64,000 nt of DNA. It comes from Cyanidioschyzon merolae. Its lineage: Eukaryota. Under the pieces are notes generated by a model, which searched no databases, was not told where the DNA came from, and saw nothing but the letters and a program-made list of their open reading frames with translations. Below, one piece after another: positions 1 to 63,443 of the stretch. The translations under genes and the position numbers were made by a program. Numbering within the stretch: the stretch's first letter is position 1; every line of letters begins with the position of its first letter. The DNA lies in assembly GCA_000091205.1 (NCBI GenBank), contig AP006495.2. One strand, given 5' to 3'.

Positions 1-184
1 GTGCTGGCAGGAACTGGAATGCCCAATATCGTTCCCTTCACGGTAACGCCACAACAAGGCACTGTACCATGGATACTAATCCCAATTGACGGTGTCTATA
101 TCCTCAATGCAATCGAAGAGTAGCGCGCGCTCACCATAACATCGAGTGTCGCTTCCCAGTGTATCTGTCCGCGCCTGCGGAGCA

Positions 185-2833: not shown

Positions 2834-3753
2834 CGTTTGGAGTGTTCGAACAAAACTGCGGATCCTGCACAAGCCGGAACGCTGGCTAGTATGTTGCGTG
2901 AACGCCGCGAGAGAGATGGACGGTATCCGTGCGCTTTGGACCATACGCATGGACATGGGTCAGACTGCTTCGCCCGAGGAACCTTGAAACCGATGAGGCC
3001 TGACCAGCTGCGCATTTCAGCAGCAACTCGGCGAGTCTGTCGAGACACAACAGAGACCAGGTTCGGAGACCGCTTTCGATCTTGAATGGATCATCGTCTT
3101 GGCGATACGCTTTCCACCCAGATGGCGTTGACCAAAGCACTGATAAACCTTTGTCTTTCGAGAGCGAATCACGCGGAACTTTGTTCCTTCATAATATCCC
3201 CCGAATGAGCAAACGTGAATAGGCTTGCAGAGGCTGAGGAGCACTCGTTCATGCACAACATGGATCCGTCAACTGATAGACCGATCTGATCCTTTTGAGG
3301 AAAAACATGTTCAGCGCATGGAAGATATCCGGCGAACGTTTACGGCGGCTATTGCCTGCTTCTATATGATGGTAAGCAGTCAATAGCCGTGAATATATTC
3401 TTCTGACAATCATATGTTTTGTATTGTCTTCTTCATACTACACTGGGCATTGAAACTCACGCCGTGCTTTCCCCGGGCGCTGCTGGAGAGCACTTTCGGA
3501 ATCATGAAGCCGGCTTCGGCCAGCGCACCAGTCTGGGACATAGTGGATGAAGTGGCTTGCTCAGAAACACTCCGTCGTCGTCCTCCATTGCTGGTCACAG
3601 ACGTCGCCAATGAGGAGCAGGTTCTGCAGCGCCGAAACAACGCCCAAAGCGCCGCTCTATTCTAAACACCTCTGCCCTGAGCGAGGCGACAATTGCTTTC
3701 CATAGATGCGAATTATAGATAGAAGTACCGAGTAACGGAATGTTCTTATCCAT

Positions 3754-4503
3754 CGAATAGCCAGGAAAAACTGTACATGGTGAATTGGTGTGGTGCTCGG
3801 GTCTTGCAGTATTGCTGAACCGTTCTGTATCAGCGTGTGAGCAGAGGCGGGAATCCGATTCTCCCTCTTGAACAGTGATGTTTCTCCATTGCATATAGAT
3901 TCCGTTTCCAGCACCAGGGCCTCACTGGGTGCCAGAGGATTCCCTCAGAACTTCGCTCGACACCAAGCCGGTGGACGCGATGGCAACAAGCGCCCGTCCC
4001 GGATGTTCAGCGAGGCGATCATTCGTAGGTGCAGAGTGTCCTTGAGCGCATTCTTGCCGGGGGAATCATGCTACAGCATGCCTCCGATCTTCGATAGCTC
4101 CGCAATCTGAAATTTGATCAGCTTGCTGTTCGCCATCTCGTGAATCTGGCTCTGTCTCATGCTCTTCTTCTGTATTCGTTTCACTGTGCACCGGTACTGG
4201 CGATGCACGTACATCGTCCTGAACGCATCTATGGGAATCGTGCAGCATCGATTCGTGCACTTGCTTGGTGCTGTCGCTGAGGGCACAGGATTAGACTCTT
4301 GGGGTGGTACACAGCCCCCGTAGACATAGGCTACCACAACGCGACGAGAGTAATCGGTCATTTCCTTGCTGGGAGCCCCCAGAGGGCTTTGGTGAATGCA
4401 CGCATCTTGCCTCTGTAGAACCGGAGCCCGTCGGGGGCGTCAGTGCAGTCGCATGTGCTGCTCATACAGGTCCTTCGCATGAGCCATGTGGACGCCTTCG
4501 TAC
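3754..4503 (+). repeat. 750-bp dispersed repeat, copy 1 (direct repeat partner at 18034-18780)
   Basis: Direct comparison of the two regions shows about 10 mismatches over about 750 bp. The common ends are AATAGCCAGG...CCTTCGTACT. There is no TG..CA terminus and no obvious TSD or TIR. Confidence 0.8.
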
Positions 4504-6309
4504 TTTCTCTACGTGAAGCATACAAAGCTCCTGCCTCTGATCGAGACGGTGCTCAGAGGGCCATGATGGATCCTGGCACCCCCATTCGTGTCCTTGACAT
4601 GTCCCGTTGCCTGCATTATGCTCGACTGCCGATAATAAGGAGCTCTGAAAAAGTTGAGCAGCTTCATCTACTTTTCGTTCAGGTCCTCGGCTGCGTTCTC
4701 TTGATCTAGAGCCCAGTGACCTCCATGATATTCTTAAACATGGGATGCACGCACAGAAGAAAGGTTTTCTCTTTTTCTTTTCTGAACGCTTGAAACGGAG
4801 TCCCGTTGCCTGACGAAGGCCTGGATTCTACCACGTGCATATAGACTACAACGCCGTTGATCTCTCTCGTGTTCAGGAAGATTTTCCGTTCCATCCCGTT
4901 GAGCGAGCAACCCTGAATGAGCTCTGCCAATGCCGCATGCAAACTTGTCTGAATCTTTCATTTTTGCTCGCATAGACCAGCTCTCTCGTCGCCTTGTCCT
5001 TTACATGGCCGGATTGTATGCATCTGGTGACCAGATCCTCTATTTGTTTGTTTTCCTTGGAACCCAGGCACTTTGGGAGAACAGTGGTTATGAATCTGAC
5101 CTCATCTATGAGTGGATCTACTCATCCTCGAGCACCTTTTTGTCTACACCAACGCGAGCACGCCCGCAGACCGAGACGCACCTTTCCGCCTCCTGGACTG
5201 CGCGAGCTGACGGGCATCAGAGCAGCTCAGGCTTCGTGAATGCCGAACAGGATTCGTCGAAGACCGGTGTCGCGGACTCGAACAACTCTTCTATTGATCC
5301 GGGGATGTTAGAATGGCGTTCCACATCAGAGGAAGCGATGTCCTCTTGATTGAACCAAGGGGAGCGTGCTTGCACGAACTGCAGCTCAATTAGAATCTAA
5401 GCTGTGTACTCTTTGATCGCTTTTGAGCGGTCGAAAGTAACGTTGTGTTAGAGCAGGGCAGAGCGATATAGAGAGGCATAGGTATGAAACGTGCTCTGAG
5501 AAAGGATGAGGTATGGATCGGTTCCATCCGATTGGCGATTTGTAGGCGATACACGACTGCATTGTCGCTGGGGCTGAAGCTGTCGTCATGCTCGCTTGTC
5601 GCTTCTTAACGATAAGCGGGTTTTCCTTCCCGGAGTACCCAGGTACAGGTCTAGCATTCCTCTCGCGAAAGAAGTCTCATCGCGTGAGAGGAGCATTCGT
5701 CGCTCCTGTAATACGCATTGATGATCCAATACGAAATTGATCACGTGCTGCGCAGGGCACGACAAACTCCCACAGAAGCGCACTTTCATCTCCGTCCATC
5801 TGTTCGTCTTCATCACCAGTCGAATCAAATGTGCGGAAAACTTCACATACCATGGCTTCTCTAATTGTATTGCTTAGAGAATGTATGGAATACAATGGGT
5901 TGACGAGTAGACATTCGCGCGGATAGATTTCATCAATTTCTGTTTCGGGTGCATAACGTTCAGACCGAGGACTACGACAAATGCGGTTCATCCACTTGCT
6001 AACCGTCAACTAACTGACTTGTGCAAAGTAGGCCTATTTTTCCGGCTAGCAATGACAGCACAAGTCTTTCGATGACCTTGCCCCAATGCATCGTATGCAT
6101 TTCTTGTGCTGACTACCTCTGAGAAAACCGAACAGAAACAAAAACGGTGTGCTGTTGCAGGTATCCCTGAATGCACTGCGCTGTGGCTCAGGAGAGGCGG
6201 CGCATGAACGCCAACGCGTAGCAGCGATACGATCCCTTCGAAACCGGAGAGCGTCAAAACGCTTTCGTACTCATTTTTTTCGAGGCACTCTCGTCGGCTT
6301 TCTCCCAGC

Positions 6310-17734: not shown

Positions 17735-18033
17735 GAAGTGTAGCTCGCGATGTCGCGATGCCGCCCTGCCGAAGCGTTCGGAAGGCGGCGGGATCGCTGT
17801 GCTCGCGCATCTGCAGCCATTGGTGCAACGCGTACGCCGCGATGCACGCGCCAGGTACAGGTGTGCGCTGGCGATCGGCGCGCATCCGCTGGCGTGATCA
17901 GATTCGTCTCGAGGCTGATCGCCGCGCTGTGCCGCATCGCCGCTGGGGTATGTTGTGAAGCGCGCGCGCTCTGTACCCCGCTTATGAATGCGCGATCATA
18001 TCGCATGCTGGATCATCTTTCTTGTCGACCAAT

Positions 18034-18780
18034 AGCCAGGAAAAACTGTACATGGTGAATTGATGTGGTGCTCGGGTCTTGCAGTATTGCTGAACCGTTC
18101 TGTATCAGCGAGTGAGCAGAGGCGGGAATCCGATTCTCCCTCTTGAACAGTGATGTTTCTCCATTGCATATAGGTTCCGTTTCCAGCACCAGGGCCTCAC
18201 TGGGTGCCAGAGGATTCCCTCAGAACTTCGCTCGACACCAAGCCGGTGGACGCGATGGCAACAAGCGTCCGTCCCGGATGTTCAGCGAGGCGATCATTCG
18301 TAGGTGCAGAGTGTCCTTGCGCGCATTCTTGCCGGGGGAATCATGCTACAGCATGCCTCCGATCTTCGATAGCTCCGCAATCTGAAATTTGATCAGCTTG
18401 CTGTTCGCCATCTCGTGAATCTGGCTCTGTCTCATGCTCTTCTTCTGTATTCGTTTCACTGTGCACCGGTCCTGGCGATGCACGTACATCGTCCTGAACG
18501 CATCTATGGGAATCGTGCAGCATCGATTCCTGCACTTGCTTGGTGCTGTCGCTGAGGGCACAGGATTAGACTCTTGGGGTGGTACACAGCCGCCGTAGAC
18601 ATAGGCTACCACAACGCGACGAGAGTAATCGGTCATTTCCTTGCTGGGAGCCCCCAGAGGGCTTTGGTGAAAGCACGCATCTTGCCTCTGTAGAACCGGA
18701 GCCCGTCAGGGGCGTCAGTGCAGTCGCATGTGCTGCTCATACAGGTCCTTCGCATGAGCCATGTGGACGCCTTCGTACTA
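18034..18780 (+). repeat. 750-bp dispersed repeat, copy 2 (partner of 3754-4503)
   Basis: See copy 1; same orientation, 14.3 kb apart. Confidence 0.8.
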
Positions 18781-20960: not shown

Positions 20961-21165
20961 TTTTTTATTCATTGACAGAACGTTTCCTTAGGCCAGCGTT
21001 CTCCGATTATGCGCATTTTTCTTCTCTTACTTTTTTTGTGTTTTTTCAGTGCGAGGTGTGGTATCCATCAGCTCCCTACCTCCATGTTACATTACCTATA
21101 CTTCTTCTCGGATATTCTGGTCGTTTCATACGTCCTATCGAGTGTGTGCCTAGTGCCTGCCGAAA
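20961..21165 (-). mobile_element. SINE-like short retroposon, copy B (full-length relative to copy A; sense on minus strand, poly-A at the 20961 end)
   Basis: Reverse-complement alignment with copy A and direct alignment with copy C at 40781-41005. The T-run at 20961-20966 corresponds to the A-tail on the sense strand. Confidence 0.5.
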
Positions 21166-21364
21166 GCGACCGCACCGGCGCCTAAAGCGCCGGTGCGTCA
21201 ATCGATGCAATACTGGCATTCGCGCCCTGGCCCCGATCGATGACCCGAAGATCCGCCGCCCGCGACATCCGGACGCACCCGCTATCGGTGCGCGCATGCA
21301 TCATCGGCGCATATCGAGACGTGAACCCTATATATATCAATTCTAGTGCCTAACTGAACGAAAC

Positions 21365-40780: not shown

Positions 40781-41005
40781 GTACGATTTTTTTTCCTGAC
40801 AAAACGTTTACGTGGGCCAGCGTTCTCCAATTGTGCGCATATTTCTTTTCTTTCTTTTTTTGTGCTCTTTTTTCAGTGCGCAGTGAAGTATCCATCAAAC
40901 GCCCTACCTCCATGTTACATTACCTATACTTTTTCTCGGATATTCTGGTCGTTTCATACGTCCAATCGTGTGCGCCTAGTACCTGCCCAAATCATCCGTC
41001 TTTGC
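40781..41005 (-). mobile_element. SINE-like short retroposon, copy C (sense on minus strand; T-run at 40781-40789 is the A-tail)
   Basis: Collinear with copy B over about 225 bp, including the shared 5' segment GGCAGG(C/T)ACTAGGC(G/A)CACAC that copy A lacks. Confidence 0.5.
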
Positions 41006-41318
41006 GCTTGAACCGCTGGGGCAGATAGTTCATAGAACTAGAACGGTTTTTCTACAGCACAGAGGGCGTCGGCTCGAGGCGTGCTTCACCCGACGTAGAA
41101 TCGGGTCTCGTCGTCAGTTTGTGCTCAGACAGTCTGCGGATGCAGGCTTGCCTTCGCTGCACGACACGCTGGAGAAACTTGGCTGTTCGGATATATCCTG
41201 GGAGCCGCCTCTCTCCTTCGTGACCATGTGTGGGATGCGTTGTTGTCGGTTGGCAACCCGGGTGTAAATCGGCGTACGATGCTGCGGTTGGAAGTACAGT
41301 AGCGGCGGTGAACGCGCC

Positions 41319-43512
41319 TTAGACAAAACGTCTCCAACCGACGTGCAGACGCCTCCACGTCTTTCTCGGCCGGCCACCGAATACTGCTTCCAACTTTTTC
41401 TCACATAATACCACCTTGAGAGGTTGTTCAACAAAATTCCCTCTTGTGAAGTCTGGAGGCCTTGTCTCCAGCACCGCACATCTCCTTGTATTGATAGCGG
41501 CGTTAGAGTCTCTGTTCACAAACTCCATACATTTCTTTCCATCACTGGTTGTACTTACTAACGCAAGCAATCCACGAACTTTCGCTCCCCTTTCCACTTG
41601 CTGTTCCGTCAGCGCACCGTACTTTTTTCTATCCTCAGGGCTCCGCTGACGCTTTTCCATATCGACCCTCTGGAGTGTATAGGACGTTCGGGACTCATCT
41701 ACAGGTATCGTAACGAAACGCCGTGCACACTTCTTGTACGTTCTTGTCGTTGGAGCTGGTGTACACCCTTTTCGGGTCTTCCAGCGTCCTGCTCCATATG
41801 CTACTGCGGGCCTCTAACTCTCATTCTCCTTGAGGGTGCTCAATTGATTGAAAAAGTTGGCGAATGCACGCTGCTTACTACAGTATAGATTCATTCGCAG
41901 ACGAGCCCAGCGGGGCTTTGTATACTCCTCCCACAGCGCCTCCCAATGAGCAACACGAACTTTCACGAATTTCCGAAAAGCTTGAAAGTCTGCTCCGCGG
42001 CTCGTCACCTCGCCCAAAGCTTCTGGGTGATCCTTCATTCCTGCGTTCCACGTGTCAATTTTCTTCCTTGCATTCATGATTCCCGATTCTCAATAGTACC
42101 TTGCTCTCGGGAATCTCAACAGAAGCATATCTTTCTGAAGCAAGTTACCGTCAGTACCATCTTCCGCACGTTTGGGTTTTGCGATAGTTATGATATTTGT
42201 GTTTCAGGGTCCGCGCCAACGATAAAGTCGTTATCCTGCACTTTCTGCAACGCAGGTTCCGCCTCCTCCTTCTCTTCATCCTTCGTCACGTCAACGACAA
42301 GGTCGTTATCCTGCACTTTCTGCGTCGCAGGATCCTCCTCCTTCTCATCTTCATCCTTCGTCACGGGCGATGCCAAAGGCGAACCAGTACGATCTTTCTT
42401 CAACCGCCGATAGTGTACATACACGGCTACTCCATCGGTTTCGATCAACCCAGTGAATACCTTTTTTCTGCTCACTCTCAGACGTTTGGAATCGAAGATA
42501 TTCTTCCAGTGGGTCTCCCGGTTTTCGCCAGTGAAGTCCTCCCTGCTGACATTGACCTCCGGACTGATCTCCCTCATGATGCCGAAAAGGACTCTGGAGT
42601 CGATACTCACAAAAAATGTGAATTGATGGTGCACATTGGAACCACGTTGAAGCGCTTCCCCATTAGGAAAGCCTTCCGTCTCTCCCATTCTTCATTTTTT
42701 TCCTCACTCAGCTTCATCTCCGGTTTGACTTCGAGCTTTCGGTCCAGAAACACGAAACAGCGCAGGACGAGGCGATTGTATCTTTCCTTATCTTTTTTCA
42801 ACTCTGTGATCTTGTCTGTTGGATTCGCCAACCCCAGTACCGCACGGTGCTCTCGTATAGCCGCACGGATCGCAGCAGCTTTATTCGTGCTCCTGCGTAA
42901 CGCCTTCTTGTCGACAAATTCGACCTCATCTTCATGCTTGCGATCGTTCGTGATGCCATTGATAATCGCCCATATTCCTTTGCGAGAGATGCCCGGGTAC
43001 AGCGCAAACACGGCGCGTCTCATGAAACGTTCGAGGTTCATTGTCAAATGGTTCTTCAGGTTCGTGATGTACATCATCGCTCCGTGTATGTAAATATTCG
43101 AGTCACCCTTGCATCGAGTACCCTCGAAGCGGAATTCCGTGAGGTTTTCGTGGAGGGTATGCACTAGCACATTTTCGCTCCGCGCTTCCCCTGTACCAAA
43201 GATGAGGTGACAAACAAAGGTCTTCTCGAGGATCTCGTCTGGAATCTCGACTGTTTTGATGTCCGTCACGTCGCGATACATCTCCGTCGCCATATGCATT
43301 AGTCCTGACGACGTCTTTAGAATAGTCTTGGAGTACGAATCGACACGGTTTCTGATGGCGTCTCCCAACTTTTCCTTGTTCGGATCCTTGATATGTTTAA
43401 AAAGAGCGGCTTCCACCACCATCTCGCCGTACTGGCGTCTTTCTTGCGGTCGTTGACGTCGGGCACCCTGCATTTGCTTCTTGGTCGTCTCCTGGTCCTC
43501 TTTGCTCGGCAC
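41319..43512 (-). pseudogene. Fanzor1-like (eukaryotic TnpB/OMEGA RuvC nuclease) gene relic on an AT-rich island, split into at least 4 frame-shifted ORF segments
   Basis: Consecutive minus-strand ORFs 43512-42607, 42688-42188, 42077-41814 and about 41815-41319 tile about 2.2 kb (about 730 aa), a Fanzor1-like size. The last segment reads ...TIPVDESRTSYT...GKKCMEFVNRDSNAAINTRRC. VDE.RTS corresponds to the TS..C.. block and NRD-x-NAA-x-N is RuvC-III. A middle segment has a RuvC-I-like [12 protein letters not shown]. Local GC is clearly lower (about 45 %) than surrounding host DNA. Confidence 0.5.
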
Positions 43513-44688
43513 TGTTTTTTATCCGCCAGCCGGCGACACTGTGCGTCCGTGGTCCTCCACTTGCATTTCTATGCTTTTATATTTTTGAAAACGGACCCGC
43601 TTCGAACACTTCTGGTATATACACCGAAAAATCACTTGAATATACTTGCTTCAGGCTTGAAATACTATTGGACAGAGATTTATACTTTGCTACGACTTCG
43701 ACGCAAATACATCTTGCCCGATACAGCAACAGTTCAACTAGTGGTCAGGATCGTGTTTCCCTTCAACGTCGAGATGCATGCCGTACCCCATGCATGCTAG
43801 ATATGGAGGTACACGTATCGACAACGCTATAGGAGAAAAAGAAAAGAACGAACCGCTAGCTAGCAACCAGATGACAATTTCTTCCCCCCTATGCTAAACC
43901 TAAAAGGCGGCAAAAAGTTTTCCGTATTTTCGAAAGCTTACCTTCTAGGCAGAAGGTCACGCGTGCCAGCCGGATCTGCTTCGCTAGCGCGTCATGCTCT
44001 TCCCAGTGGTGGGTGCTGAGGCGCGACTTGGGCAACTCGCCCGCAACGCGGTTTACTCTGCCACTCGGAGCGAGTATGCTGTGTCTGGCCGTCGCACTGG
44101 GAGCAATAGTGCCCTAATATATCGCTTCGCGCTTTAATGGGAAGTATGTCTGTCTGCGCGGTTTGCAGGCTCCCGGAATGATAATTTATCCTGATTCCGC
44201 CTCGGATGAACGGTGCCTCGAGGTGGCGCCCCCAGTGGTATAGCAAAGCCTTTCTGTCTCTATGATGCATCTGCACCAGCGGTATACGCGTTACGGCTGG
44301 TGCTCTCTACAGGTTCGACGCACAATGGATTGTAGAAAACGATCAGTACGCCCGAGAAGGAGTCCAGGTTATGGAACCTGGAAGTAAGGGGATCGATGGA
44401 TGCTCCACCGCGCGCTTATACCAGGCGCACAGTCGGGGAACACAGCCCAGAGTCACGGAGCTGTCAATTAGAACAAGGCATCGAACGCGGCCGGCGGCGG
44501 TTGGGCGCGCTCGAAATGCATTTGCATCAACTAGCATGAATGGGGAACGTACGTTTGCCCGTGAAAATCTCGTTACTGGGATAGGATGCTGGTGATCTCG
44601 TAGAGTGCCTTGGAATCCACAAGTGAAATGCTGCGTTATTCACAAAAAAACTATTGTCGTTCTGTTTAGTTTGAGTCTGTGAGCTGGA

Positions 44689-53747: not shown

Positions 53748-54002
53748 AGGGCCGAGACAATCCCACGAGATTCCTGAGTTAGGGCGTGCTCTCTGGTCCA
53801 GAGACCAATGTTGAACTTGCAGAGACGTTCCCGGAACTGCAACAATACCTGCGTTCTACGAAGCGAAAACGCTTCACGGCCACGGGATCAATGAATACCC
53901 TACGTGCAGATGCCTCCCAGTCGCTTCCGACCGGCCACCTGTTATCGGTTTCAGCTGGTCGTCATGCAACTCGACCCTGAGAGGCTGCTCCACAAAGTTG
54001 GA

Positions 54003-54212
54003 TCACGTCAACTCCTCTGGCCTCGTCCTCAACACAATACATAGTCTGACATTGATGTCGGCGTTGACGTCTCGGTTCACGAACTGCATGCGTTTATTGC
54101 CGCTGGCGGAACGCATCAATGCAGGGATTCCTCGAACTCGCGCCCTCTGTGCCACTAAAGTCTCTTCATCGTCCCGTCGGGCTAACATTGCTTCTCGCCT
54201 GTCTCCGCTCTA
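54003..54212 (-). pseudogene. Short Fanzor1-like RuvC-III fragment
   Basis: ...VRGIPALMRSASGNKRMQFVNRDVNADINVRLCIVLRTRPEELT* is collinear with the 41.3 kb relic (VRGLLALVSTTSDGKKCMEFVNRDSNAAINTRRCAVLETRPPDFT) at about 60 % aa identity and about 65 % nt identity. The frame closes about 8 codons upstream. Confidence 0.4.
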
Positions 54213-54652
54213 GTTTTTCTTCTTCTTCGCCGTCAAATGCTCTTCGTCGCTCGATGGTCGGCAGAAAGAGAATTTTCTAGTTCTTTTTTCTCGGTAATCG
54301 GCGACACCTGGCTTCCAGGAACCTCGACTTTTATCCCTAGACCTTTTCCATCATCATTTCATTTCTGCATATGAACGAACTTGGGATCCATCTGCGATCA
54401 ACCGCGAAAAAGCATGTAACAAGACGATCCTGGGAGTGAAATACAAATGAGTTGAGAGTCTACAAGCCCGCAACGCCTGCACATCACAGAATCCCGAGAC
54501 TCTCCATCGAGAGGGTAGCGTTCGGAAAGGCATCGAGCGTGCGTGCGCGCATGGAGACGGCGGTCACGGAATTCCCCGACTCTTCTGTCGCAAAGCGACG
54601 CTTGTTTCCCGCGCTTTTTTATGAGCACTGAATCCGCCAGATAAAATCTTCC

Positions 54653-55795
54653 ATGGTGCAAGTTGAGCTACCGGTTGTGGACATCAGTTCGTATCGTTGT
54701 TACCATAACGAAACTGGTTCTGCCAACAGTAGCAATGCTTCGCTTCCTGTGGATATTGAGCGCGAGTGCTTTTGCATCGCCCAAGCGCTGGCTCGCTACG
54801 GGGCAGTTGTTATCAGAGACACCACGGTTTCTGCGGAAGAGAACAATGCCTTCATCGAGCTTATGGCCTCATATTTCGCGCACCCTGACAAGGCAGAAGA
54901 CGCACGGCCTCAGCTGAACTATCAAGTGGGCTGGACACCAGCCTTTACAGAGCGACCCCGACCCATTCCTGCGGACTTTCACGGCGATGCGCCGGTCACG
55001 CCCCGACCTCAATCGGTACCGCCCATTACCTCACAGGATCCGAAAGAGCGGTTTCTATGGCGCATCGGTCCGCGCCCTGCGACTTCACGTTTTCCAGAAC
55101 AAAACGCACCGCCAGTAGTTCCTCGACGCTTTGCCGAACGTTGGTCGCAGATCATGGACCGCTGGGGACATCGCCTCCTAGATGCGATTCAGCTCGTTGC
55201 AGAGATGGTCGCATTGGGACTCGGACTGGGGCGCGACGCCTTTACATCCCGCATGAAAGACGGACCGCACCTGCTGGCACCAACCGGCTCGAATTTGAGC
55301 GGTCTCCTGGACAGACCGAATACCGTCTTGGCTGGCTTTCACTATGATTTGTGCTTCCTCACCATTCATGGGAAATCGAATGCCCCTGGCCTGTATCTGT
55401 GGACAAGAGAGGGTTCTCGTTTCCCAGCGAAAGTGCCGCCGGGATGTCTCCTAGTACAGGCGGGGCTGGAGTTGGAGTGGTTAACAGGCGGTCTCATTCA
55501 GCGCGGCTACCATGAAGTAGTTGCGGATGAGGCGGCCTTGGCGCTTGCAAAGGCTCATATGGAGCAGCAGCATGATGCAACTGGGAAGCAACGTCGTCCA
55601 TTCTGGCGCATTAGTTCGACGCTTTTCGCGCACATTGCTTCAGATCAGGTTCTTGAACCGCTTGCGGGTTTGGCGGGCGTGACGGACTCGAGCCGTGTCA
55701 AGTATCCCCCTATTTTGGCAGGCGACCTTGTTCGGCGGGAGCTCATGGCGATTTCGTTGTGTCCATCTGCGACTGCAACGGACACAGCGTCGTGA
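54653..55795 (+). CDS. 2-oxoglutarate/Fe(II)-dependent dioxygenase (IPNS-like / DIOX_N family)
   Basis: N-terminal LPVVDISS...AQALARYGAVVIRDT (DIOX_N-like); facial triad HYDLCFLTIH (HxD) with distal GYHEVV; RISSTLF provides the Arg-x-Ser 2OG-binding motif. Confidence 0.55.
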   Translation: MVQVELPVVDISSYRCYHNETGSANSSNASLPVDIERECFCIAQALARYGAVVIRDTTVSAEENNAFIELMASYFAHPDKAEDARPQLNYQVGWTPAFTERPRPIPADFHGDAPVTPRPQSVPPITSQDPKERFLWRIGPRPATSRFPEQNAPPVVPRRFAERWSQIMDRWGHRLLDAIQLVAEMVALGLGLGRDAFTSRMKDGPHLLAPTGSNLSGLLDRPNTVLAGFHYDLCFLTIHGKSNAPGLYLWTREGSRFPAKVPPGCLLVQAGLELEWLTGGLIQRGYHEVVADEAALALAKAHMEQQHDATGKQRRPFWRISSTLFAHIASDQVLEPLAGLAGVTDSSRVKYPPILAGDLVRRELMAISLCPSATATDTAS

Positions 55796-58021
55796 GCTGA
55801 ATACCGATGGCTTGCCACGAGCCGTTCGTCTCATGTGTGCTCGCCTCTGCTGCCTTGGACGTCCGTCGCAGACGGAACAACGAGTGAGCGGAACGCAGCA
55901 GGTGCGTTGAAAGTTTGCCTGCTCGCGACTGCTCAAACAATAAGGCCCTAATAACGTTTTGATGAATCTTTCTACCGAGATGTGTTTTCGGAAAGTGCAC
56001 GGCGCACGTTCGGTGCTCGAGTCATTGAGCAGTTACCCGCTTTGCGAGCTATTCTCGCAAACGCGAAGGTGATGTATTCCAGCAATGTATGCTGCATCTC
56101 CTGCGAAAAGGAGCTTCGAACGTCCCGTAGGCCTCTGGAATACAACGTCTCCTCCAGTGCTGCTACATGGACACAGGGAATCGCATGTAAGCGCCATGCT
56201 GGGGCACACGTTCGGTGCCGTGTTGGAAAATGCCCCTCTGTCACGCCACGAGGAAAGAGGGTCAAACTTTTGGACGGCATGCGGGCAACGATAGCCGCAC
56301 TGGATCACTTTACAATACCATGTGTGATTGTAAATAAGTGTTCACGGGCGACTACCATGCCAACCGCCATGACATCACTTATCTAAGCAGCTCTGATAGT
56401 TCGCCTTAAGCGAGACGACACCGAAGCGCATGGTGTTGAATTACTCAAAGATACCTATGAAAAAGTTTCCACGAGCTGTGCTCACAACATCCGCAATGAG
56501 ATAACAATTCTGAGTAGGACTTGCATTTACCCCAAACCCACGTTATGATTATGGAATGGAGCGGGTCCGTTCATCTACATCGTGCACACATTCTAAAGTT
56601 TTGTATGCTTCCCAGTTTCATCAACACAAGCATTTGCGGGCCTTCTCAGCGACTGTTTCCTTTCCCTCTCTCTACGATCTAGCTTCCAATACGCTGTTCT
56701 CTCTTGCTGCTCCAGCACGGTTGTCAGCAGTTGAAGCGTGCCGATGCCAGTGCCCGATTCACAATTTTACTCCTTCCATTTTGCTGTCTATGCAGGCCAT
56801 GCACGGATGCCAGTGCCCGATTCACACTGCCCGTGACATTTTCATCATCTCTGTAGACAGCGTCGATGCACTCGCAGCAGCGATGACACCTGACTTTAAC
56901 GGGACGCTCTCCTGTGTCTACCGAACCTCCTCGTCATCTGAGCGCCGACCTGCGACCAGAGACGTTCGCTTCGTCGCTCGCTACAAGCGCCTGACGGGTC
57001 CAGAAGACTCATCGCAATGCTCTCCTCGGCTTCCGCGTGCGATGCGGTACCCTGCGCTGACGGACTGCCCCCAGACTATCCCCTTGGCGAGTGCTCTGTC
57101 CGATGCATGCGCAAGCGCGTTATGTTCTTTTTGATGGATGATTTCTCGTGCGCGAGGTTGTCCATGATAAAACAAGTACCGGAACGAACATGCAGGCTGG
57201 AGATCAAGTCGAGCGCTTTGGATCCGCGTACGCTCCCTCGTTGCAAAACGATAACGTACGCTGCACTCGGAGCGATCGCTTTGATCACTAAAATCCGAGT
57301 CCAAAGCCCCGCTTTCCACCCAAACAGACGATACGAGAGCCTTCTGATAGCGTTTCCAGCTACAGGTATGATGTTGGCCCCGAATAACGTCTCGTCAATG
57401 GCCGGAAAAATAGTATGATTCCGGTTTCGAACGGAGTCGGTTATTTTTCGTGACAAGGTCAGTGAAAGTTCGACACGAGCTCGTGAACGACTCGTCCCTG
57501 GTCAACGTCGCGTATTCCTCAATGCCAACGAAGGGGCGTGAATGATTGCACACATACGTTGGTTCAAACTAGATAGATCGAGAGTTTGAGGAATGTGTGA
57601 TAGGAGCATACTGCACGTAAGAAAACTACAAGACTTGGCGCTTGTACGAAGGAATTGCTTCATGATGCAGATTATGTAACGAACCCGTGTTCAAGGACGT
57701 TGCGAATGACCCTGAATCCGGTGAAATCACGAATTCTTGCAGCAAGGCGTCGAGTGAGCCTCGCCCAACCGATATCCGAGAAACCTAAAACGAACCATAC
57801 ATCCGTAAGCCCTAATTACTGCACTTCGAATATTTGGGTTATGCTTCTCGAAACAAGTTCGAAAGAAATTCCAAGGCAGGAGCAGAGCCAGCAATACAGC
57901 ATTCCGTGGTAATCGGACGCACGTGTGTCGACCGGACAGCCCCAGCATCCAGATTCGTCGCATCGCTAGGCACCTCGCTGTTTCGAAATCCCCCAACGTG
58001 CAGCTCCAGTTTTCATTTCAT

Positions 58022-58591
58022 TTACAGAGAACAAGGAGATCGGATTTTTGGTCTGGAGCAGTCCAGCTCATTCCACGGAAAGTGAACGAACAATCCGAGA
58101 CCCTGAAAAGCACACCTGCTCGATCGTCTATGTTCATGTGAGGGTTTTCGATGCGTCATAGAAAGATACGCATACAAGCGATGAAAAGCGGTCATACATC
58201 TTGCGGCGCTGCTACCGTCAAGCGACACATCTCGGTCCATGATAGGATTCGGACCCCAAGTCGATGCACTCGCTGCAAATGCTAGCGCCACGATGTGAAG
58301 AGCAATGCAATGAAGCAGCTGGGTGACGAACGCTTGCGTTTGCGCGGGTGCTGGGTCGTCACCATCACCGTCACCATCACCGTCACCATCACCGTCACCA
58401 TCACCGTCACCATCACTACTACTCTTACGACTACCATGCGGTGTGCCGGAGCAGCTGTCCAGCCATGGATCAGCGCATGCGAGCAATACCGCGGTCAAAG
58501 CGATGGAATGCAGCTGTGCTAGCCCCAGTGCGCAGTAAAGAAGCAGAACAGAAGCAGAATTTGAAGTATACTCTGGTCCACTCTTGGCCAA
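58022..58591 (-). CDS. Hypothetical small membrane protein carrying a (Gly-Asp)n repeat
   Basis: Two hydrophobic helices flank (GD)10 encoded by the hexanucleotide-based repeat at 58357-58416. Could be a real lineage-specific gene or an ORF created by the repeat. Confidence 0.2.
   Translation of the reverse strand: MAKSGPEYTSNSASVLLLYCALGLAQLHSIALTAVLLACADPWLDSCSGTPHGSRKSSSDGDGDGDGDGDGDGDGDGDDPAPAQTQAFVTQLLHCIALHIVALAFAASASTWGPNPIMDRDVSLDGSSAARCMTAFHRLYAYLSMTHRKPSHEHRRSSRCAFQGLGLFVHFPWNELDCSRPKIRSPCSL
58357..58416. repeat. (GTCACCATCACC)5 12-mer tandem repeat
   Basis: gtcaccatcaccgtcaccatcacc... x5; gives (GD)n on the minus strand and (HHHR)n on the plus strand. Confidence 0.85.
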
Positions 58592-58636
58592 TGGAGCGAA
58601 CCATCTACCCAGGCAAACGCGCGTATGCGAGTGCTG

Positions 58637-60451
58637 TTACAAGTACCGCTGTCGGGCTGCATCCTTGTCAGCACCACGGTTCAACGCTTCGGTTGAAGCA
58701 GTCTCGTGACCCCAGAGCAGGCGCACGGAACCCGTGTACCAGAGGATCCGGGAGATATCCCAGCCCGCTTCGCGGAGCTGTCCGAGGAGCGGATGTGGGT
58801 CCGGTGGCGGCCAGTCACGTCCACCTGACTGCCACACGTGCAGCAGCGCCTGCAGAATGTCCACCACCTGTGCATCACAATGGAGAGCGATAAGGAAGTC
58901 ATCAGCGCGACCCTGGGTTCGGTGATAAGGACGACGTGCCCGTCGTGCCAACAAGTACCGAAGCTTTGGATCGCCCAGAAAACGTTCCCAACCGGCTGGC
59001 TTTTCAGTGGAATGCGCTGTTGCGCCATCTCCGGACTTGCTCGAAATCGTGGCACGGGCAAGATGCTCAGGGCGTCCCTGCCCTGTTCCTTCGTACGGAT
59101 CCGAAAGTAACTCATTTAGCGAGTTCACGAAGCGAATCCGATATACATGAGACCAGGGTCTCAGAAAAGACTTTTGCTCTGCTGCATTTGCCTCGGCGAT
59201 GGACGGCACTCGCTTACCGCTACTCGCGGTGTAAACGTTCAAAACGTATTCGAGGCGCGTTCGGTTCAACGTGCGCAGCTCGAGTCGAATGACGCTCTGG
59301 TACGTCGCATACAAATGTCCTGCACTGAGTAATCCATACGCCATCACCAGAGCAGAGGCATCGTGACTTGTTACTGCGGAGACCGCGATGCCGGCTCCGA
59401 TCCCGGACAGACGCCCGACCACTACTTGAGATTCACTTTTCGACGACACGTCGCCGCTATTATTTCGAATGCTGAAATGATAGAGAAACACGCGATATGC
59501 TGGGCCCGTTGCAACATCCGCAGCCTTGCGAAGCAGGTTCCCGGTCGAAGCTAGAGCCAAAAACCAGGGTGGAAACGCCAGCGTCAGCATTTCGAAGAGC
59601 GTGCCCAGCGCCATCACAAAGTCACCGTAGAAACGGAAACGTTTCGGATCGTTATCCACGCGCGGTGCGAGCTGCGTAGCCAAAGCTACTTTTGCAAAAT
59701 AACCAAGGCCGTCTTTCAGTATCCACTTCCAGGCAGCAGCGAGAGGCAGCGCGCTTGCTCCCCCGACACCCAGAGCCAGAAGCATGGACTGGGTTCCAAG
59801 AACCTCTGCCGCCTCTAGCAGTGTATGTCGCAGGATATTCCAGCGCCAAAACCGATCATAATCGCTCGACACAGCTGAAGGATAGTCGGCGGGTAGCAGT
59901 AGTGTTTGCACGAGGCGCTGAGGCCAGTTCTCAGGCCGGGTCACGGCAGTGCCGGCTGGTGGCTCAGGGACGACTCGCCAGTGCCGCTGTTCTTCGTCGT
60001 GCAAGAAGACCCTGCTGCGCCCACTTGCTTGATTTCTCTCTTCGATAAAGTATTTCGCGAAAAGGGCGCTTCTGCTCCAGCTGCTCTGTGAAGCGCGTGC
60101 TCGTCTGCGAGGCCACAGCTGTGTAGCCTCGTTCAAGCCGCTGCACCCGCCGTGAACGTAAGCGCTGAGCTGCTGCAAACGCTTTCGGTCCATGCACCCA
60201 GACAGAGAAGGGTGAACGTTCGACACGGGTAGCACCGAAGCGCTTGCAAGATCATATAATCCTTGAAGCACTGCGGTCTTGCACGAGCGCCTGCCGCAAG
60301 CCACGAAGAGCTGTTCCCGTAAAGTTTGAACGCAATGTTTCGGGACAACGGCTGCATGTGATCGCGTGCTATCTGGTACTGCACAGCAGGAGCTCGAAAA
60401 GACGATGCAATGTACCGTATAGAACATAGACGAATAGCCTGTTGGATACAT
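58637..60451 (-). CDS. RUS (root UV-B sensitive) / DUF647 family protein
   Basis: Collinear matches to the RUS1/RUSF1 core: WILKDGLGYFAKV (VLKDGAGRVGKM), FYGDFVMALGTLFEML (FAGDLLMELGAGVEL), NNSGDVSSKSESQ (ENIGDVTAKGE), LNRTRL (LNRARF). Confidence 0.65.
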   Translation of the reverse strand: MYPTGYSSMFYTVHCIVFSSSCCAVPDSTRSHAAVVPKHCVQTLREQLFVACGRRSCKTAVLQGLYDLASASVLPVSNVHPSLSGCMDRKRLQQLSAYVHGGCSGLNEATQLWPRRRARASQSSWSRSALFAKYFIEERNQASGRSRVFLHDEEQRHWRVVPEPPAGTAVTRPENWPQRLVQTLLLPADYPSAVSSDYDRFWRWNILRHTLLEAAEVLGTQSMLLALGVGGASALPLAAAWKWILKDGLGYFAKVALATQLAPRVDNDPKRFRFYGDFVMALGTLFEMLTLAFPPWFLALASTGNLLRKAADVATGPAYRVFLYHFSIRNNSGDVSSKSESQVVVGRLSGIGAGIAVSAVTSHDASALVMAYGLLSAGHLYATYQSVIRLELRTLNRTRLEYVLNVYTASSGKRVPSIAEANAAEQKSFLRPWSHVYRIRFVNSLNELLSDPYEGTGQGRPEHLARATISSKSGDGATAHSTEKPAGWERFLGDPKLRYLLARRARRPYHRTQGRADDFLIALHCDAQVVDILQALLHVWQSGGRDWPPPDPHPLLGQLREAGWDISRILWYTGSVRLLWGHETASTEALNRGADKDAARQRYL

Positions 60452-60551
60452 ATTCTTTATGGAAGTGTGCGCACGGAAGACTGTATCCCTCCTTCAGGTC
60501 AGTCATCATATTGTACGGTGATGCTTGAGGAGCCCTGAAAGACATCGATAG

Positions 60552-61840
60552 ATGCGCGCTGCAGGAAAAGCTGGCATTGTCGATGACTGGGCAATGGTAG
60601 ACAGCGGCCCGTTGATCACCTTACGGAAAGCAAAAGCGACGATAGAAAGCACAACGGCTGTCCCTGTTTCTCAACAGCTTGTTTATGTGGTCGTGAATAC
60701 ACCGGGATACAGTGACAAAAAAGTCCCAGGTTTTGCATGGCCATCTTGCCCCGAAACAGCAACCAAAGAGTTCCCGGAATCTCACTATCCATGTAATGGA
60801 GAGGGAACTCGGTTTGTTTTCCCAGTCAATGAGGCTTGCTTCGGACGAAATGATCGAAGCGTTCATGGGTATTCGAGGTGAAGCGAGCCTGTTGTATGTA
60901 CGATCGAACTCGTAGAGAATGAGAACATCACCATCTGTTCTTGCTGTCGTAGACTGATTCGGCGGCCTCAGTTTCGCTTGTATACATGGCTCGAAGAACA
61001 GAACCCACTTCATCGAATCATTGAAGACCTGTCCCTGACGTCTGGCGACGTCCCTCTACCGGACGACATGGTACTCTACCATTCTCCTGACGTTCGACCT
61101 TCCTCCGATTCTGCCGGGACGTAGCTGCTTTTGATTCCTACGTACTCTCCGTGCTTCAACTCCATCGCAGGAGTAGTTTCTATTGTGAAACGTGTGATGA
61201 TCGCTCCACTGGGCAAATCGATGAAGCATTCAGCACACTGTGACATATCGGCGGCATATCTCGCCTTCTTCCGAAAGTCCTTCACGCTCCGGGGCGGTCG
61301 CCGCGTAGCGGCATAAACAAGTGCGTTCATTTGAAGAAATGAAAAATCCAGGGAAAAGGTATGAACATGGGCGTCGAAGATCCCGGCGAGCCGTCATCAC
61401 CGGATTCGACAACATGAAAACGAAAACATCCTCTTCTGGCGGCCCATCGAGCGAAGGAATGCAGGTGACGAAGATGAAGATGAAAAAAGGGAGATACGCG
61501 TGTAAAGTCGCTTGCCCAACGGGACGACGACGAGACTCTTGCGGCACAGAAGGCACAAGTTCTGGCAATCCTTGCATTGGTTAGTTCACCCAGATGAAAT
61601 AAACGCGTGGATTTCGTGTGCAGAGACTTCAATGCCGCCATTCATATTAGACGATGTGTGGTGCTGAAGACACGACTCGCAGAGCGGACGCGATCCAATA
61701 TTGTGGAGCAGCTTGTCAGGCTCGAAACGCACGAGGAGAAGTTGCAGCCGATAGCAATCGACAGGTCGGCAAAGGCTGCACGGCGTCTTTCCGCCTGTAT
61801 TGATTTACCGTGTGGTTGCGAAACGTCTTTGCTCCGTTGA
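60552..61840 (+). pseudogene. TnpB/Fanzor-like relic, plus strand (RuvC-II, Zn-knuckle and RuvC-III pieces in different frames)
   Basis: ORF 61321-61584 has AVITGFDNMKTK (degenerate vv.EdLn.k.m) and a RYACKVACPTG knuckle. A frameshift is followed by ORF 61607-61840, VCRDFNAAIHIRRCVVLKTR...NIVEQLVRLETHEEKLQ, collinear with ...NRDSNAAINTRRCAVLETR...NFVEQPLKVVLCEKKLE of the 41.3 kb relic. The GTG start shown by the track is an artefact of alternative-start calling. Confidence 0.35.
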
Positions 61841-63443
61841 GCATGTATTGACGCGTGTGATAAGAGGAGAGATAATGGAAGCGTCGAATCTCCAGTATGT
61901 GGATGACGCTCCCTCAAACAACACAGATTGCCAGCCTGGGCACTCGGTGCGCCGCGTTTCCGAGCCTCTTCGGCACCGTTATCAGGAAAAATGGAACAGG
62001 TCTACAGATCTACTGCAGAGGTATACACTAGAATGAGGGTCTCTTCCCGCTGTCATCGATATCTGTCGTTGTGGACATTACCCGTGACTGCTTCTCATGC
62101 CTGGCTCCGAGCTCCGTATTGAAATACACCGATCTCTCATGTGGATCCAGCCGAATGTTTCGCTGTCAAAGGATGTTCATAGCAGCTTTCATGCCTCGAT
62201 TTCATGGCATCGGGCTGTAGTGAATGCATTACATGCATAGGTAGAAGCTCCGGTCTACACATCGCTTGCCATTGTCACCATCATCATCGTTGTATCCAGG
62301 CTGTGTGCGACGTATACAACGGACACACAGGGCTATGGTCTGGTGTTACCGTATACGCAGCACACCATGCGCTGCGACAGCAAACGTACGGCGGAAACAA
62401 GCGTGAGTCTACCGACTTGTTCAAGGAGCTGCAAAAAGGAAACGACTGAAAATTCCCTTCGTATCGTGGTAGCCTAAGTTGCTGGACGCATTGGAGCGCG
62501 CATGGTTGCTTTCCTGATCCTCGAACAAAAACACGTACTACGAGAGTACGAATATCGATACCGCACGATTGCCATGGATGAATTCAGGACGGCACCCGGG
62601 TAACAAGAGCACAAGTTCGCACCGAGGCCGCCAGATGGAAACAGAGTGAACCGGGGCTCCATGCACGACCACTTGCAACGCAAACTGGCTGAACATGATT
62701 TGGGAACCGATCGTCGGTGAAAATCTTGCGTTTGTCGGATTCCAGCACCAAAAGTGTACCCAAAAGCACTTTCTGCTCTCTGGCTCGGACGCCTCGATCA
62801 ATATCCGATAATGTCTGATGCTTCATGATCGTCCAAGGGCTTCGTGTCCAGCGAACTTTGGACTGGATGTTTTTATTACCAGTCTGAGCATTGTGCGGAA
62901 ACGCTGCATATTTCCGATGGAAAACATCAGTATCTCGAAGAGCGTTCATTGGATTCCCGCGCGGTGCACGGCACCTATATGGTACGGTCACTCATCCGGA
63001 ATCGCTAAAGTGGCATACCGAGACTCCCGCCACCATATTCCTGGTGCATTTTTCGAACGACCATCATAATGCATCTTCCGATATTCTTGAGTATACCAGG
63101 CGACGTAAGCTGCTTTACGACGTATCCCGCCGCACTACGGAAATGCTCACCAGCGTCGATGACAACAACTTGTTGCGGATGCGTGAGCAGCGCTCATCCG
63201 TACTCCTGCTGTGCCACACTTCCAGCGCTCTCAAAACAGCGCTTCCGCACAACACCAGGACGCATCTTCACAACACAAGCACGCGCTGTTCATGATGCGA
63301 GCATCCGCATGTTGCCCTTGCCTTGAACGGCACTCGCGGGTATCGCCCTGAACACTGCGTCTCTAGAGCATGTATTCGCGGAACACATCCCCGCGGAAAC
63401 CGCGCTTGCCATCCTACCACAGCACACCCCGTTTATTCGGATT

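Follow-up and report, generated by a model that had tools for sequence, protein, structure and literature searches.

Two probable ghost copies of an internally deleted Fanzor1 transposon on chromosome 13 of Cyanidioschyzon merolae

The window analysed here, a stretch of 64,000 nucleotides, is part of chromosome 13 of Cyanidioschyzon merolae 10D. Two of its features, near 54 kb and 61 kb, are best read as inert ghosts, copies of a CMe-1-type Fanzor1 transposon derivative that is non-autonomous and carries an internal deletion; this reading is given a probability of about 0.85. A single in-frame deletion came first, and the deleted form then multiplied. The 61-kb copy belongs to a long form in which a DDE_3 transposase gene, now dead, lies immediately upstream on the same strand.

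Family assignment and the reference relic

The family matches the published CMe-1 Fanzor1 protein and the consensus of CMe-1A, a Fanzor1 element with about 150 copies (Bao & Jurka 2013, Mob DNA 4:12; PMC3627910). That description treats CMe-1 as one family that has no TIRs and whose TSDs and classification are unknown, with no mention of a deleted subfamily or of a transposase, and reports intact copies among its members (PMC3627910). The reference copy in the window is the following.

41294..44404, minus strand: frameshifted, near-full-length CMe-1A copy (consensus 66-3135), recognized by blastn against the published consensus and by its reading frames

In blastn, 44404-41294 is 82-86% identical to the published 3169-bp CMe-1A consensus; the relic is 62% identical to the family member P0001. 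The CMe-1A consensus and P0001 carry the motifs GADPG, VDEFRTS and VNRDFNAA, and their finger region has two Cys and two His only.

The 54-kb and 61-kb pieces are 66-72% identical to positions 2833-3088 of the CMe-1A consensus, and this homology to an established Fanzor1 supports their derivation from the Fanzor1 (TnpB-like) transposon family. The two Fanzor1-like fragments that the first-pass annotation had reported are real: with the 113-residue ORF at 41319-41660(-) as query, tblastn matches 54164-53895(-) with E=2.4e-25 (53% over 91 aa) and 61553-61789(+) with E=2.5e-15 (46% over 80 aa), and finds no comparable chance match elsewhere. The motif strings that it cited are present in the alignment, and its DNA identity of about 65% is close to the values obtained against the 41-kb copy (66.5% over 203 bp at 54 kb and 72% over 119 bp at 61 kb). 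Its protein collinearity with the 41-kb relic past RuvC-III also stands, with an extent of about 45 residues beyond NRD.NA rather than about 25.

Structure of the two copies

The 54-kb copy is a short element.

53840..54462, minus strand: whole 54-kb copy, a short ghost element of subfamily B of about 620 bp (nhmmer, blastn)
54284..54462, minus strand: leader and Fanzor ORF start, consensus 788-962 (blastn, 66.7% over 180 bp, E=2e-17)
53902..54154, minus strand: C-terminal Fanzor remnant, consensus 2833-3088, with RuvC-III FVNRDVNADINV (blastn, 71.5% over 256 bp, E=6e-44)
53860..53875, minus strand: intact tail hairpin HP2, GAAGCG-UUUU-CGCUUC (centroid fold)

A nine-copy subfamily-B profile finds this element at 54396-53840 (nhmmer, E=8e-152), and blastn maps it onto the CMe-1A consensus in two blocks. 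The C-terminal remnant, which corresponds to family HMM positions 629-682, encloses the ORF at 54003-54188. The copy is 77% identical to the subfamily-B consensus, its N-terminal and C-terminal parts sit in different frames, and it occupies about 620 of the 905 bp that separate two divergent genes.

The 61-kb copy is longer at its 5' end.

About 60360..61860, plus strand: whole 61-kb copy, the long form of subfamily B, a transposase relic plus ghost Fanzor of about 1.5 kb (nhmmer, alignment with L076)
60426..61193, plus strand: dead DDE_3 (IS630/Tc1-mariner type) transposase gene (tblastn with a five-copy consensus protein, E=2e-85, 60% over 258 aa)
61312..61403, plus strand: leader and Fanzor ORF start, consensus 869-948 (blastn, 68% over 85 bp)
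61549..61788, plus strand: C-terminal Fanzor remnant, consensus 2840-3082, FVCRDFNAAIHI (blastn, 66% over 243 bp, E=1e-27)
61820..61835, plus strand: degraded equivalent of tail hairpin HP2, with 3 of 5 core pairs left (alignment pair counts, covariance-model alignment)

The nhmmer core of this copy is 61312-61859 (E=1.6e-153), while its 5' end is approximate, placed where conservation among five to six copies climbs, at about 60360-60420. The two window copies are 76-77% identical to the subfamily-B consensus. The C-terminal remnant at 61 kb covers family HMM positions 653-694 and overlaps the ORF at 61607-61840. The 61-kb copy can be aligned with L076 over 1368 bp at 67%; orthology was rejected for this match of about 1.37 kb, the two loci having no neighbouring gene in common.

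Relative to CMe-1A, subfamily B has lost consensus positions of about 1054-2826 (about 1.77 kb, or about 590 codons) by an in-frame deletion that took out RuvC-I, RuvC-II and the zinc-finger region. What is left is the leader, about 50 N-terminal codons, about 94 C-terminal codons including RuvC-III, and a tail of about 65 nt. In the 54-kb and 61-kb copies the RD (RuvC-III) block is the sole survivor of the D...[TS][TS]-x-x-[zinc finger]...RD motif set. Because two of the three catalytic motifs are missing, the fragments would be incapable of RNA-guided DNA cleavage, and neither window copy is predicted to have any nuclease capacity. Both also have stop codons in the residual Fanzor frame and are about 23% diverged from the subfamily consensus. 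Both are located in promoter-proximal intergenic DNA, directly upstream of genes.

The retained 3' module

The tail of subfamily B is characterized by the hairpin HP2. Over 11 subfamily-B-type tails the HP2 helix is 81.8% paired, compared with 39-51% for slid controls, and compensatory changes occur at 5 of its 7 pairs; in this sample of 11 related sequences, its covariation score is beaten by 9 of 500 shuffles. Subfamily A (CMe-1A-type) has a G.U-rich terminal hairpin of about 19 bp, which pairs at 74% (slid controls, about 40%) but shows little covariation, no more than column shuffles; its two sequence variants pair in different registers and are missed by column counts. The retained 3' module of subfamily B with its covarying terminal hairpin is a candidate cis-acting right end and a putative omega-RNA scaffold. 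When RNAalifold is applied to the whole retained 3' module, many helices are obtained, with almost no compensatory changes beyond the terminal hairpin. The tail is less conserved than the coding remnant (sequence differences of 33% against about 18%). Shuffled sequences fold as well as the window tails (z = 0.58, 0.06 and -0.21), the thermodynamic stability of the three tails is insignificant on either strand, and Rfam and tRNA scans of the window are empty. The first-pass annotation had suggested looking for a structure common to the three 3' flanks; none is found, as the covariance model built on the subfamily-B tail hits only the coding part of the 41-kb copy and misses its flank. A second tail hairpin, GGGTA...TACCC, is seen by eye in most subfamily-B copies, where its register is shifted by MAFFT so that its pairs are uncountable.

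If the 3' module is an omega-RNA scaffold, the ghosts could use Fanzor protein from full-length relatives. The fuller proposal, that the C. merolae Fanzor1 resides in an IS630/Tc1-mariner-type transposon with a transposase that could be reconstructed from the subfamily-B long form, and that the ghosts persisted as omega-RNA genes whose RNA is loaded by Fanzor from the few intact CMe-1 copies, is speculative and probably incorrect as a whole. If it were true, a eukaryotic RNA-guided nuclease would act in trans for a population of guide-RNA carriers that have no ORF, and this in a eukaryotic genome that is among the most compact.

Alternatively, the host might have recruited the mini-ORF or the 3' RNA module, which would then still be functional, to serve as a nuclease-dead regulator, a source of guide RNA or a promoter element of the neighbouring genes. 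Intact in-frame mini-ORFs of 143-160 aa survive in some metagenome copies (for example P0243, 143 aa, and P0210, 160 aa), and there is a slight excess of changes at the third codon position (21.4% against 16-18%, p=0.012). The covariation of the terminal hairpin points the same way, although the hairpin is degraded at 61 kb, and so does the position of both window copies directly upstream of genes, although such a position is expected anyway in so compact a genome. A mini-protein of this kind would lack RuvC-I, RuvC-II and the whole RNA/DNA-binding N-terminal half, the window copies are interrupted by stop codons and, at 54 kb, by a change of frame between the N- and C-terminal parts, and the copies are dozens of dispersed, diverged sequences rather than one conserved locus. 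Co-option is improbable.

A deletion junction common to ten copies

The deletion junction is the same in ten copies: the two in the window (w54 and w61) and L052, L056, L076, L088, L090, L092, L094 and L097. In blastn all ten map as consensus positions of about 786/898-969 plus about 2833-3090, and they align across the junction without indels. They are found on different contigs with different neighbouring genes. Since ten unlinked copies have one junction, it was the deleted form itself that spread, and it did so later than the deletion. Within the window, the 54-kb and 61-kb copies match each other better than anything else (68% over 544 bp), while only 119-203 bp of either can be aligned with the DNA of the 41-kb copy. 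They belong to a separate, older subfamily (B) and are closer to each other than to the 41-kb relic.

This junction bears directly on the possibility that each fragment is the leftover of an independent full-length Fanzor1 gene, decayed and truncated in place. Such an origin would agree with the age of the copies, whose mutual identity is about 68%, and with a protein search that recognizes the C-terminal part alone. However, both copies retain the leader and first codons joined to the C-terminal block at one point, and the same junction is present in eight further unlinked copies. Since independent decay would not reproduce one junction, decay in place is contradicted and is very unlikely. 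The earlier view of the copies as old, dead and independently inserted, with no local duplication, is retained, but not its in-place decay of full-length genes. A local segmental (inverted) duplication inside the 8-kb interval, which the mutual best matches on opposite strands only 7 kb apart might suggest, is scarcely credible, given an identity of just 68%, unrelated flanks and equally similar copies on unrelated contigs (L052, L056, L076 and others) with other neighbouring genes.

The ends of the element are less distinct. Neither terminal inverted repeats nor TA duplications are found in five copies, in which decay of about 25% could have erased short TIRs, and the end-to-end similarity of subfamily-B copies, direct or inverted, is no higher than that of shuffles. 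A CAGTG...CACTG terminus picked out by eye was dropped as inconsistent across copies.

The transposase of the long form

The five-copy transposase consensus matches Pfam DDE_3 with E=1.3e-14 and 54.8 bits (cut-off 28.6), and also has a weak match to HTH_Tnp_Tc3_2. The window copy alone, at E=0.022 and 15 bits, is under the threshold. In the catalytic core, the consensus is 30% identical over 138 aa to the Mariner transposase of PUl-1 (pairwise E=2e-11). The gene is collinear with the ghost Fanzor and upstream of it at seven loci (tblastn).

In the 61-kb copy the transposase is in a single frame with five stops. The catalytic motifs of the consensus are SVDETCF, LLLDNMAFHHS and PPYSPCFNPIEG, and the corresponding segments of the window copy are PVNEACF, PLPDDMVLYHS and PTYSPCFNSIAG, so that the D/D/E residues are mutated (VNEA, LPDD and NSIAG) and the catalytic residues are lost. 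A RuvC-II/zinc-knuckle piece had been proposed for the 61-kb copy; the family HMM finds none at 60.5-61.5 kb. The string FVFPVNEACFGRN in the ORF at 60552-60881, probably the supposed RuvC-II motif, is the first catalytic motif of the decayed DDE_3 transposase.

Movement may have been by DDE cut-and-paste, even though no TIRs or TA duplications are found; transposase would possibly have been supplied in cis in the long form and needed in trans by the short 54-kb form. The full-length CMe-1A element lacks a transposase, and its 5' region differs. A subfamily-B parent with transposase and intact Fanzor was not recovered intact.

Fold and relatives of the family

The AlphaFold model of P0001 has a pLDDT of 81 and a pTM of 0.78. 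In a fold search with this model the top seven PDB matches belong without exception to Fanzor1 (SpuFz, PpFz and GtFz; E=4e-15 to 1e-12), with target-normalised TM values of 0.49-0.69, while Cas12 and Fanzor2 appear only at E>0.01. The family is thus predicted to have the Fanzor1 fold, as modelled on P0001 and not on the fragments. PDB sequence searches with the family profile, P0041 and the transposase consensus return no Fanzor, and the fold search alone succeeded. Pfam gives nothing useful for the individual window ORFs, P0001 or P0041; the precomputed family label, PF26935, is merely DUF8286.

That lack of a Pfam match for the fragments or P0001, with no label beyond DUF8286, is what might favour an ordinary host family, such as a zinc-ribbon nucleic-acid-binding protein intact elsewhere, as the source of the C-terminal motif. 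This origin, the refuting case named by the first-pass annotation, is excluded for practical purposes, as the relatives form a repeat family, matched 430 times among related hot-spring metagenome contigs, the family is identical to the published Fanzor1 CMe-1 and has a Fanzor1 fold, and distant relatives bear PF07282 OrfB_Zn_ribbon.

Comparison with known systems

CMe-1A shares host and protein lineage with the fragments, which retain its leader and ORF start (about 786-1053) and its last 270 or so coding nt. They differ from it in their 66-72% identity, in the in-frame deletion of about 1.77 kb and in having another 3' tail, and in the subfamily-B long form the 5' 800 bp of CMe-1A are replaced by the transposase gene.

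The ghost Spu-1 elements of Spizellomyces punctatus are ORF-less, are about 550 nt long and keep the omega-RNA region (Saito et al. 2023, Nature 620:660; PMC10432273). They occur alongside full copies or in greater numbers than these, they carry clear 30-nt inverted repeats, and their omega-RNA has been detected by experiment (PMC10432273). Subfamily-B copies are likewise short Fanzor1 derivatives that retain the candidate right-end region. In contrast to Spu-1, they have no detected inverted repeats, their omega-RNA is only inferred, and they retain about 145 ORF codons in frame.

PUl-1 of Pythium ultimum and PGv-1 are mariner-type elements carrying Fanzor1; PUl-1 has 24-bp TIRs, TA duplications and an intact Fanzor (Bao & Jurka 2013). 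As in the subfamily-B long form, a DDE transposase gene is located upstream of Fanzor1 on the same strand. Unlike PUl-1, subfamily B has no visible TIRs or TSDs, its Fanzor is deleted and its transposase is dead.

PATEs are prokaryotic, non-autonomous IS200/IS605 derivatives in which the ends of the element and its omega-RNA region are preserved. They depend on a Y1 (HUH) transposase, and their ends are single-strand hairpins. Subfamily B resembles them as a set of deletion derivatives with putative structured cis-acting ends and proteins probably supplied in trans, whereas the transposase associated with it is a DDE enzyme.

Since the C. merolae Fanzor1 family and the idea of an ORF-less ghost Fanzor are already published, the main result is the correct filing of two fragments. 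Two points go beyond the 2013 description: one in-frame deletion sets apart a distinct, older subfamily, and a DDE_3 (mariner-type) transposase has a physical link to that subfamily. The link offers a candidate classification for elements of unknown superfamily, for which no TIRs or TSDs were reported. The segment kept in ten derivatives (the last 270 or so coding nt plus the tail of about 65 nt with its covarying hairpin) is a testable boundary for the cis-acting/omega-RNA region, and C. merolae, with its tractable genetics and its scarcity of other repeats, makes the test practical.

Other Fanzor-derived loci in the window

The four relics previously counted are an undercount, as the window has at least six Fanzor-derived loci of three lineages. 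Those of the third lineage, C, are as follows.

3743..4703, minus strand: C-terminal half of a relic from a third, divergent Fanzor1 lineage, C (HMM matches; tblastn with P0001, E=3.5e-27)
18019..18779, minus strand: second lineage-C relic (blastn, 98.2% to 3743-4504 over 762 bp; tblastn, E=1.8e-13)
62436..62591, plus strand: small lineage-C fragment with a true RuvC-II motif, IAMDEFRT (blastn to 4367-4215, 75-84%; translation)

The last of these falls outside the interval covered by the first-pass annotation.

Family assignment

The long ORFs of the window are densely packed and its G+C content is 51-58% because C. merolae has a compact, almost intron-free red-algal genome; the encoded proteins include GAPDH, an M16 metalloprotease, CMM164C and a 2OG dioxygenase. 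Within the window, the 113-aa ORF at 41319-41660 (minus), part of the 41-kb relic, matches 54164-53895 (minus) with 53% identity over 91 aa (E=2.4e-25) and 61553-61789 (plus) with 46% over 80 aa (E=2.5e-15), while all remaining matches have E>0.9. At the DNA level the 54-kb copy is 66.5% identical to the 41-kb relic over 203 bp, and the 61-kb copy 72% over 119 bp. Judged from these alignments, which contain the motif strings quoted in the first-pass annotation, the similarity is real, collinear and well above chance.

The 41-43.5-kb region can be read as a single frameshifted gene with the motifs GADP(E)T, VDE(S)RTS and FVNRDSNAAIN. Among known systems the fragments are closest to CMe-1A, the Fanzor1 family of C. 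merolae described by Bao & Jurka in 2013 (PMC3627910); the earlier assignment to Fanzor1 was correct. CMe-1A is represented by about 150 copies, some still intact, which each match a 3169-bp consensus at about 80% identity; it has no terminal inverted repeats (TIRs), and its target-site duplications and classification are given as unknown (PMC3627910). Since window positions 44404-41294 (minus) align to positions 66-3135 of this consensus (supplementary file 2 of that paper) at 82-86% identity, the 41.3-kb relic is a near-full-length CMe-1A copy.

The protein search returned 41 relatives, nearly all from hot-spring metagenomes. The top relative, P0001 (752 aa, 62% identical), has all three RuvC motifs. 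Searches of PDB and Pfam by sequence alone gave no match. An alignment of 42 sequences underlies the AlphaFold model of P0001 (pLDDT 81, pTM 0.78), whose seven top PDB fold matches are SpuFz, PpFz and GtFz, the three solved Fanzor1 proteins (E=4e-15 to 1e-12); the next are Cas12 and Fanzor2, with E>0.01 only. Some of the remoter relatives (about 600 aa; one is from Chlamydomonas euryale) carry PF07282 OrfB_Zn_ribbon. Both homology and the predicted fold thus support placing the family in Fanzor1.

A deletion shared by ten copies

The 54-kb and 61-kb copies are 68% identical to each other over 544 bp (54383-53843 against 61318-61850), a stretch that far exceeds what either has in common with the 41-kb copy. 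Each aligns to CMe-1A in two blocks.

Features of the 54-kb and 61-kb copies
54462-54284, minus strand: 54-kb copy, block 1 (CMe-1A consensus 788-962)
54154-53902, minus strand: 54-kb copy, block 2 (consensus 2833-3088)
61319-61403, plus strand: 61-kb copy, block 1 (consensus 869-948)
61549-61788, plus strand: 61-kb copy, block 2 (consensus 2840-3082)
60426-61193, plus strand: transposase relic in the 61-kb copy (one frame, E=2e-85)

The same two-block structure is found on related metagenome contigs, at L052, L056 and L076 and, among loci fetched via short ORFs of this type, at L088, L090, L092, L094 and L097. In the joint alignment of the ten copies there are no indels across the junction, where about consensus position 1053 is joined to 2826 inside a short GACGAG/GACGGAG microhomology. 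The deletion is in frame and fuses residues 1-52 to about 641-734, giving a mini-ORF of about 145 aa that has stayed open in part of the metagenome copies, such as P0243 (143 aa) and P0210 (160 aa). The ten copies are unlinked and their neighbouring genes differ at every one; a single deleted master element must therefore have multiplied. The independent decay of full-length Fanzor genes proposed in the first-pass annotation is ruled out by the common junction. Both window copies thus descend by deletion from a Fanzor1 transposon lineage; the derivative, which itself was amplified, is here termed subfamily B. The family has been in print since 2013 and the copies are dead; what departs from the earlier account is their anatomy, with one shared in-frame deletion and a transposase relic.

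Against their own consensus, subfamily-B copies show 71-77% identity (77.1% and 76.4% for the 54-kb and 61-kb copies, the only two in the window by profile search) and are therefore older than the window's CMe-1A copy. Several metagenome relic ORFs, such as P0212 and P0254, join a full-length-type upstream part to a B-type C-terminus, so the parent of subfamily B is a sister lineage of CMe-1A and not CMe-1A itself. In the retained coding part, codon positions 1, 2 and 3 show 17.7, 16.1 and 21.4% differences (p=0.012), a pattern that suggests slight past coding constraint in the master lineage and, for the most part, neutral decay. The coding capacity of both window copies is wholly destroyed.

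The transposase relic

Between the 61-kb copy and L076 the alignment spans 1368 bp (60452-61788, 67%), and the two have no flanking gene in common. The region upstream of the ghost, as the deleted Fanzor part may be called, is common to five to six copies, with conservation starting at about 60360-60420. Its majority consensus contains a 273-codon reading frame with SVDETCFGRN, LLLDNMAFHHS and PPYSPCFNPIEG, which matches the IS630/Tc1-mariner-type transposase domain DDE_3 (PF13358; E=1.3e-14, 54.8 bits, cut-off 28.6), has weak Tc3-type helix-turn-helix matches, and is 30% identical over 138 aa of the catalytic core to the Mariner transposase of PUl-1 (pairwise E=2e-11). The window relic has five stops and mutated catalytic residues (VNEA, LPDD, NSIAG), and on its own matches DDE_3 with E=0.022. 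Within it, 'FVFPVNEACFGRN' in ORF 60552-60881 is almost certainly the string that had been read as a RuvC-II/zinc-knuckle remnant; between 60.5 and 61.5 kb the family HMM detects neither a RuvC-II nor a zinc-finger segment.

The layout of transposase followed by ghost Fanzor is found at seven loci. One form of subfamily B is linked to a DDE_3 transposase gene; CMe-1A itself has no transposase trace. The closest architecture is that of Mariner elements with Fanzor1, for example PUl-1 and PGv-1 (PMC3627910), and in kind the copies come nearest to the 'ghost Spu-1' of Spizellomyces, with 134 ORF-less loci that retain the omega-RNA region (PMC10432273). Searches of the openly accessible literature turned up neither a mariner-type transposase nor a deleted Fanzor subfamily for C. 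merolae. TIRs and TA duplications were not found in the subfamily-B copies, so that it is the architecture, together with the known Mariner-Fanzor1 elements, that suggests transposition by the DDE_3 enzyme. Both forms would have moved by DDE cut-and-paste: the long, transposase-bearing form could have supplied the enzyme in cis, and the short form would have needed it in trans.

L098:416-1684 carries the same transposase with another junction (consensus 868-894 joined to 2738-3084) and is an independent deletion derivative within the subfamily-B lineage.

Structure of the 3' ends

From 430 metagenome-contig matches, 80 loci were fetched and 50 non-redundant CMe-1A-type 3' ends were aligned. 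Conservation extends about 95 nt past the last codons and closes, right after 'CTACTGTA', with a hairpin of about 19 bp, within which the published consensus terminates. This hairpin ends most CMe-1A-type copies (L008-L087; e.g. L081:2941-2985, L051, L061, L028, L086) and has two sequence variants with differing pairing registers, CGUCGUUCGA-CUU-UCGAACGGCG and CAACGUUUUUC-UUUU-GAAAGACGUUUG; it is better on the sense strand because of conserved G.U pairs. By column counts it is 74% paired against about 40% for slid controls, and it is no better than column shuffles in this column-based counting, in which the two variants pair in different registers. The window's 41-kb copy is without it and has the tail 'TTCCAACCGCAGC', also present in L069. 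The hairpin may be the genuine right end, belong to an omega-RNA or form a palindromic unit of its own.

Subfamily-B tails part from CMe-1A tails immediately after GGAGGCGUCUGCACGU. RNAalifold predicts one helix in eleven B-type tails, with 81.8% pairing against 39-51% for slid controls, compensatory changes in five of seven pairs, and a covariation score of 0.488 against 0.370 for shuffles (reached by 9 of 500). The helix is intact at 53860-53875 in the 54-kb copy and degraded at 61820-61835 in the 61-kb copy. Comparative evidence thus points to a structured right end within each subfamily. No RNA element is common to the three window flanks: shuffled sequence folds as well as the three tails (z = 0.58, 0.06 and -0.21), Rfam gives no match, and the covariance model of the B tail matches the 41-kb copy in its coding part only.

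The last ~270 coding nt and the tail, kept in all ten deletion derivatives, are consistent with a block needed in cis; the omega-RNA of GtFz1 overlaps the last 17 codons (PMC10432273). If this 3' module combines the right end with an omega-RNA scaffold, the ghosts could have used the Fanzor protein of full-length relatives.

L076:2795-3150 holds a CMe-1A-type copy that faces a subfamily-B ghost tail to tail; about 20 bp separate the two 3' ends, an arrangement that could reflect chance or preferred insertion beside an existing right end.

Other Fanzor-derived loci and neighbouring genes

Four relics had been counted in the window. This is too few: tblastn with intact relatives also matches 3819-4703 (minus) and 18094-18771 (minus), and a further fragment lies at 62436-62591 (plus), so that there are six Fanzor-derived loci from three lineages. 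The segments 3743-4504 (minus) and 18019-18779 (minus), 762 bp long and 14 kb apart, are 98.2% identical and far younger than all other window relics. Both encode the C-terminal half of Fanzor1 from a third, divergent lineage, C (about 28-30% aa identity to CMe-1; RuvC-II 'IPIDAFRT'). Their youth suggests that a truncated unit was recently duplicated, converted or mobilised. A weak DDE_3 transposase relic at 19948-19722 (minus; tblastn E=5e-4), directly upstream of the 18-kb relic on the same strand, hints that lineage C may have had the transposase-then-Fanzor layout as well. The fragment at 62436-62591 follows the 61-kb copy after about 580 bp, barely beyond the interval first annotated; it is also of lineage C and has a true RuvC-II, 'IAMDEFRT'. 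Short fragments at 13886-13951 (minus), 21064-21184 (plus) and 40903-41105 (plus) match the CMe-1A 5' region alone (consensus ~70-282, 76-89%) and are probably copies of the 635-bp TE-N2_CMe, which has the CMe-1A 5' end in common (Bao & Jurka, PMC3627910).

The 54-kb ghost occupies about 620 of the 905 bp (53748-54652) between divergent genes starting at 53747 and 54653. In the 61-kb element, the 5' end (60360-60451) runs into the longest ORF 58637-60451 (minus) and covers its first ~30 codons; the exact 604-aa product of this ORF is absent from the protein collection, so the annotated start probably lies further in. Transposon-derived DNA must contain or adjoin the promoters of the genes flanking both copies. 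The (GAC/GTC)n-type trinucleotide run at 58300-58440, which borders the 58637-60451 gene on its 3' side and gives poly-Asp-Gly and poly-His-Arg ORFs on the two strands, is ordinary low-complexity sequence.
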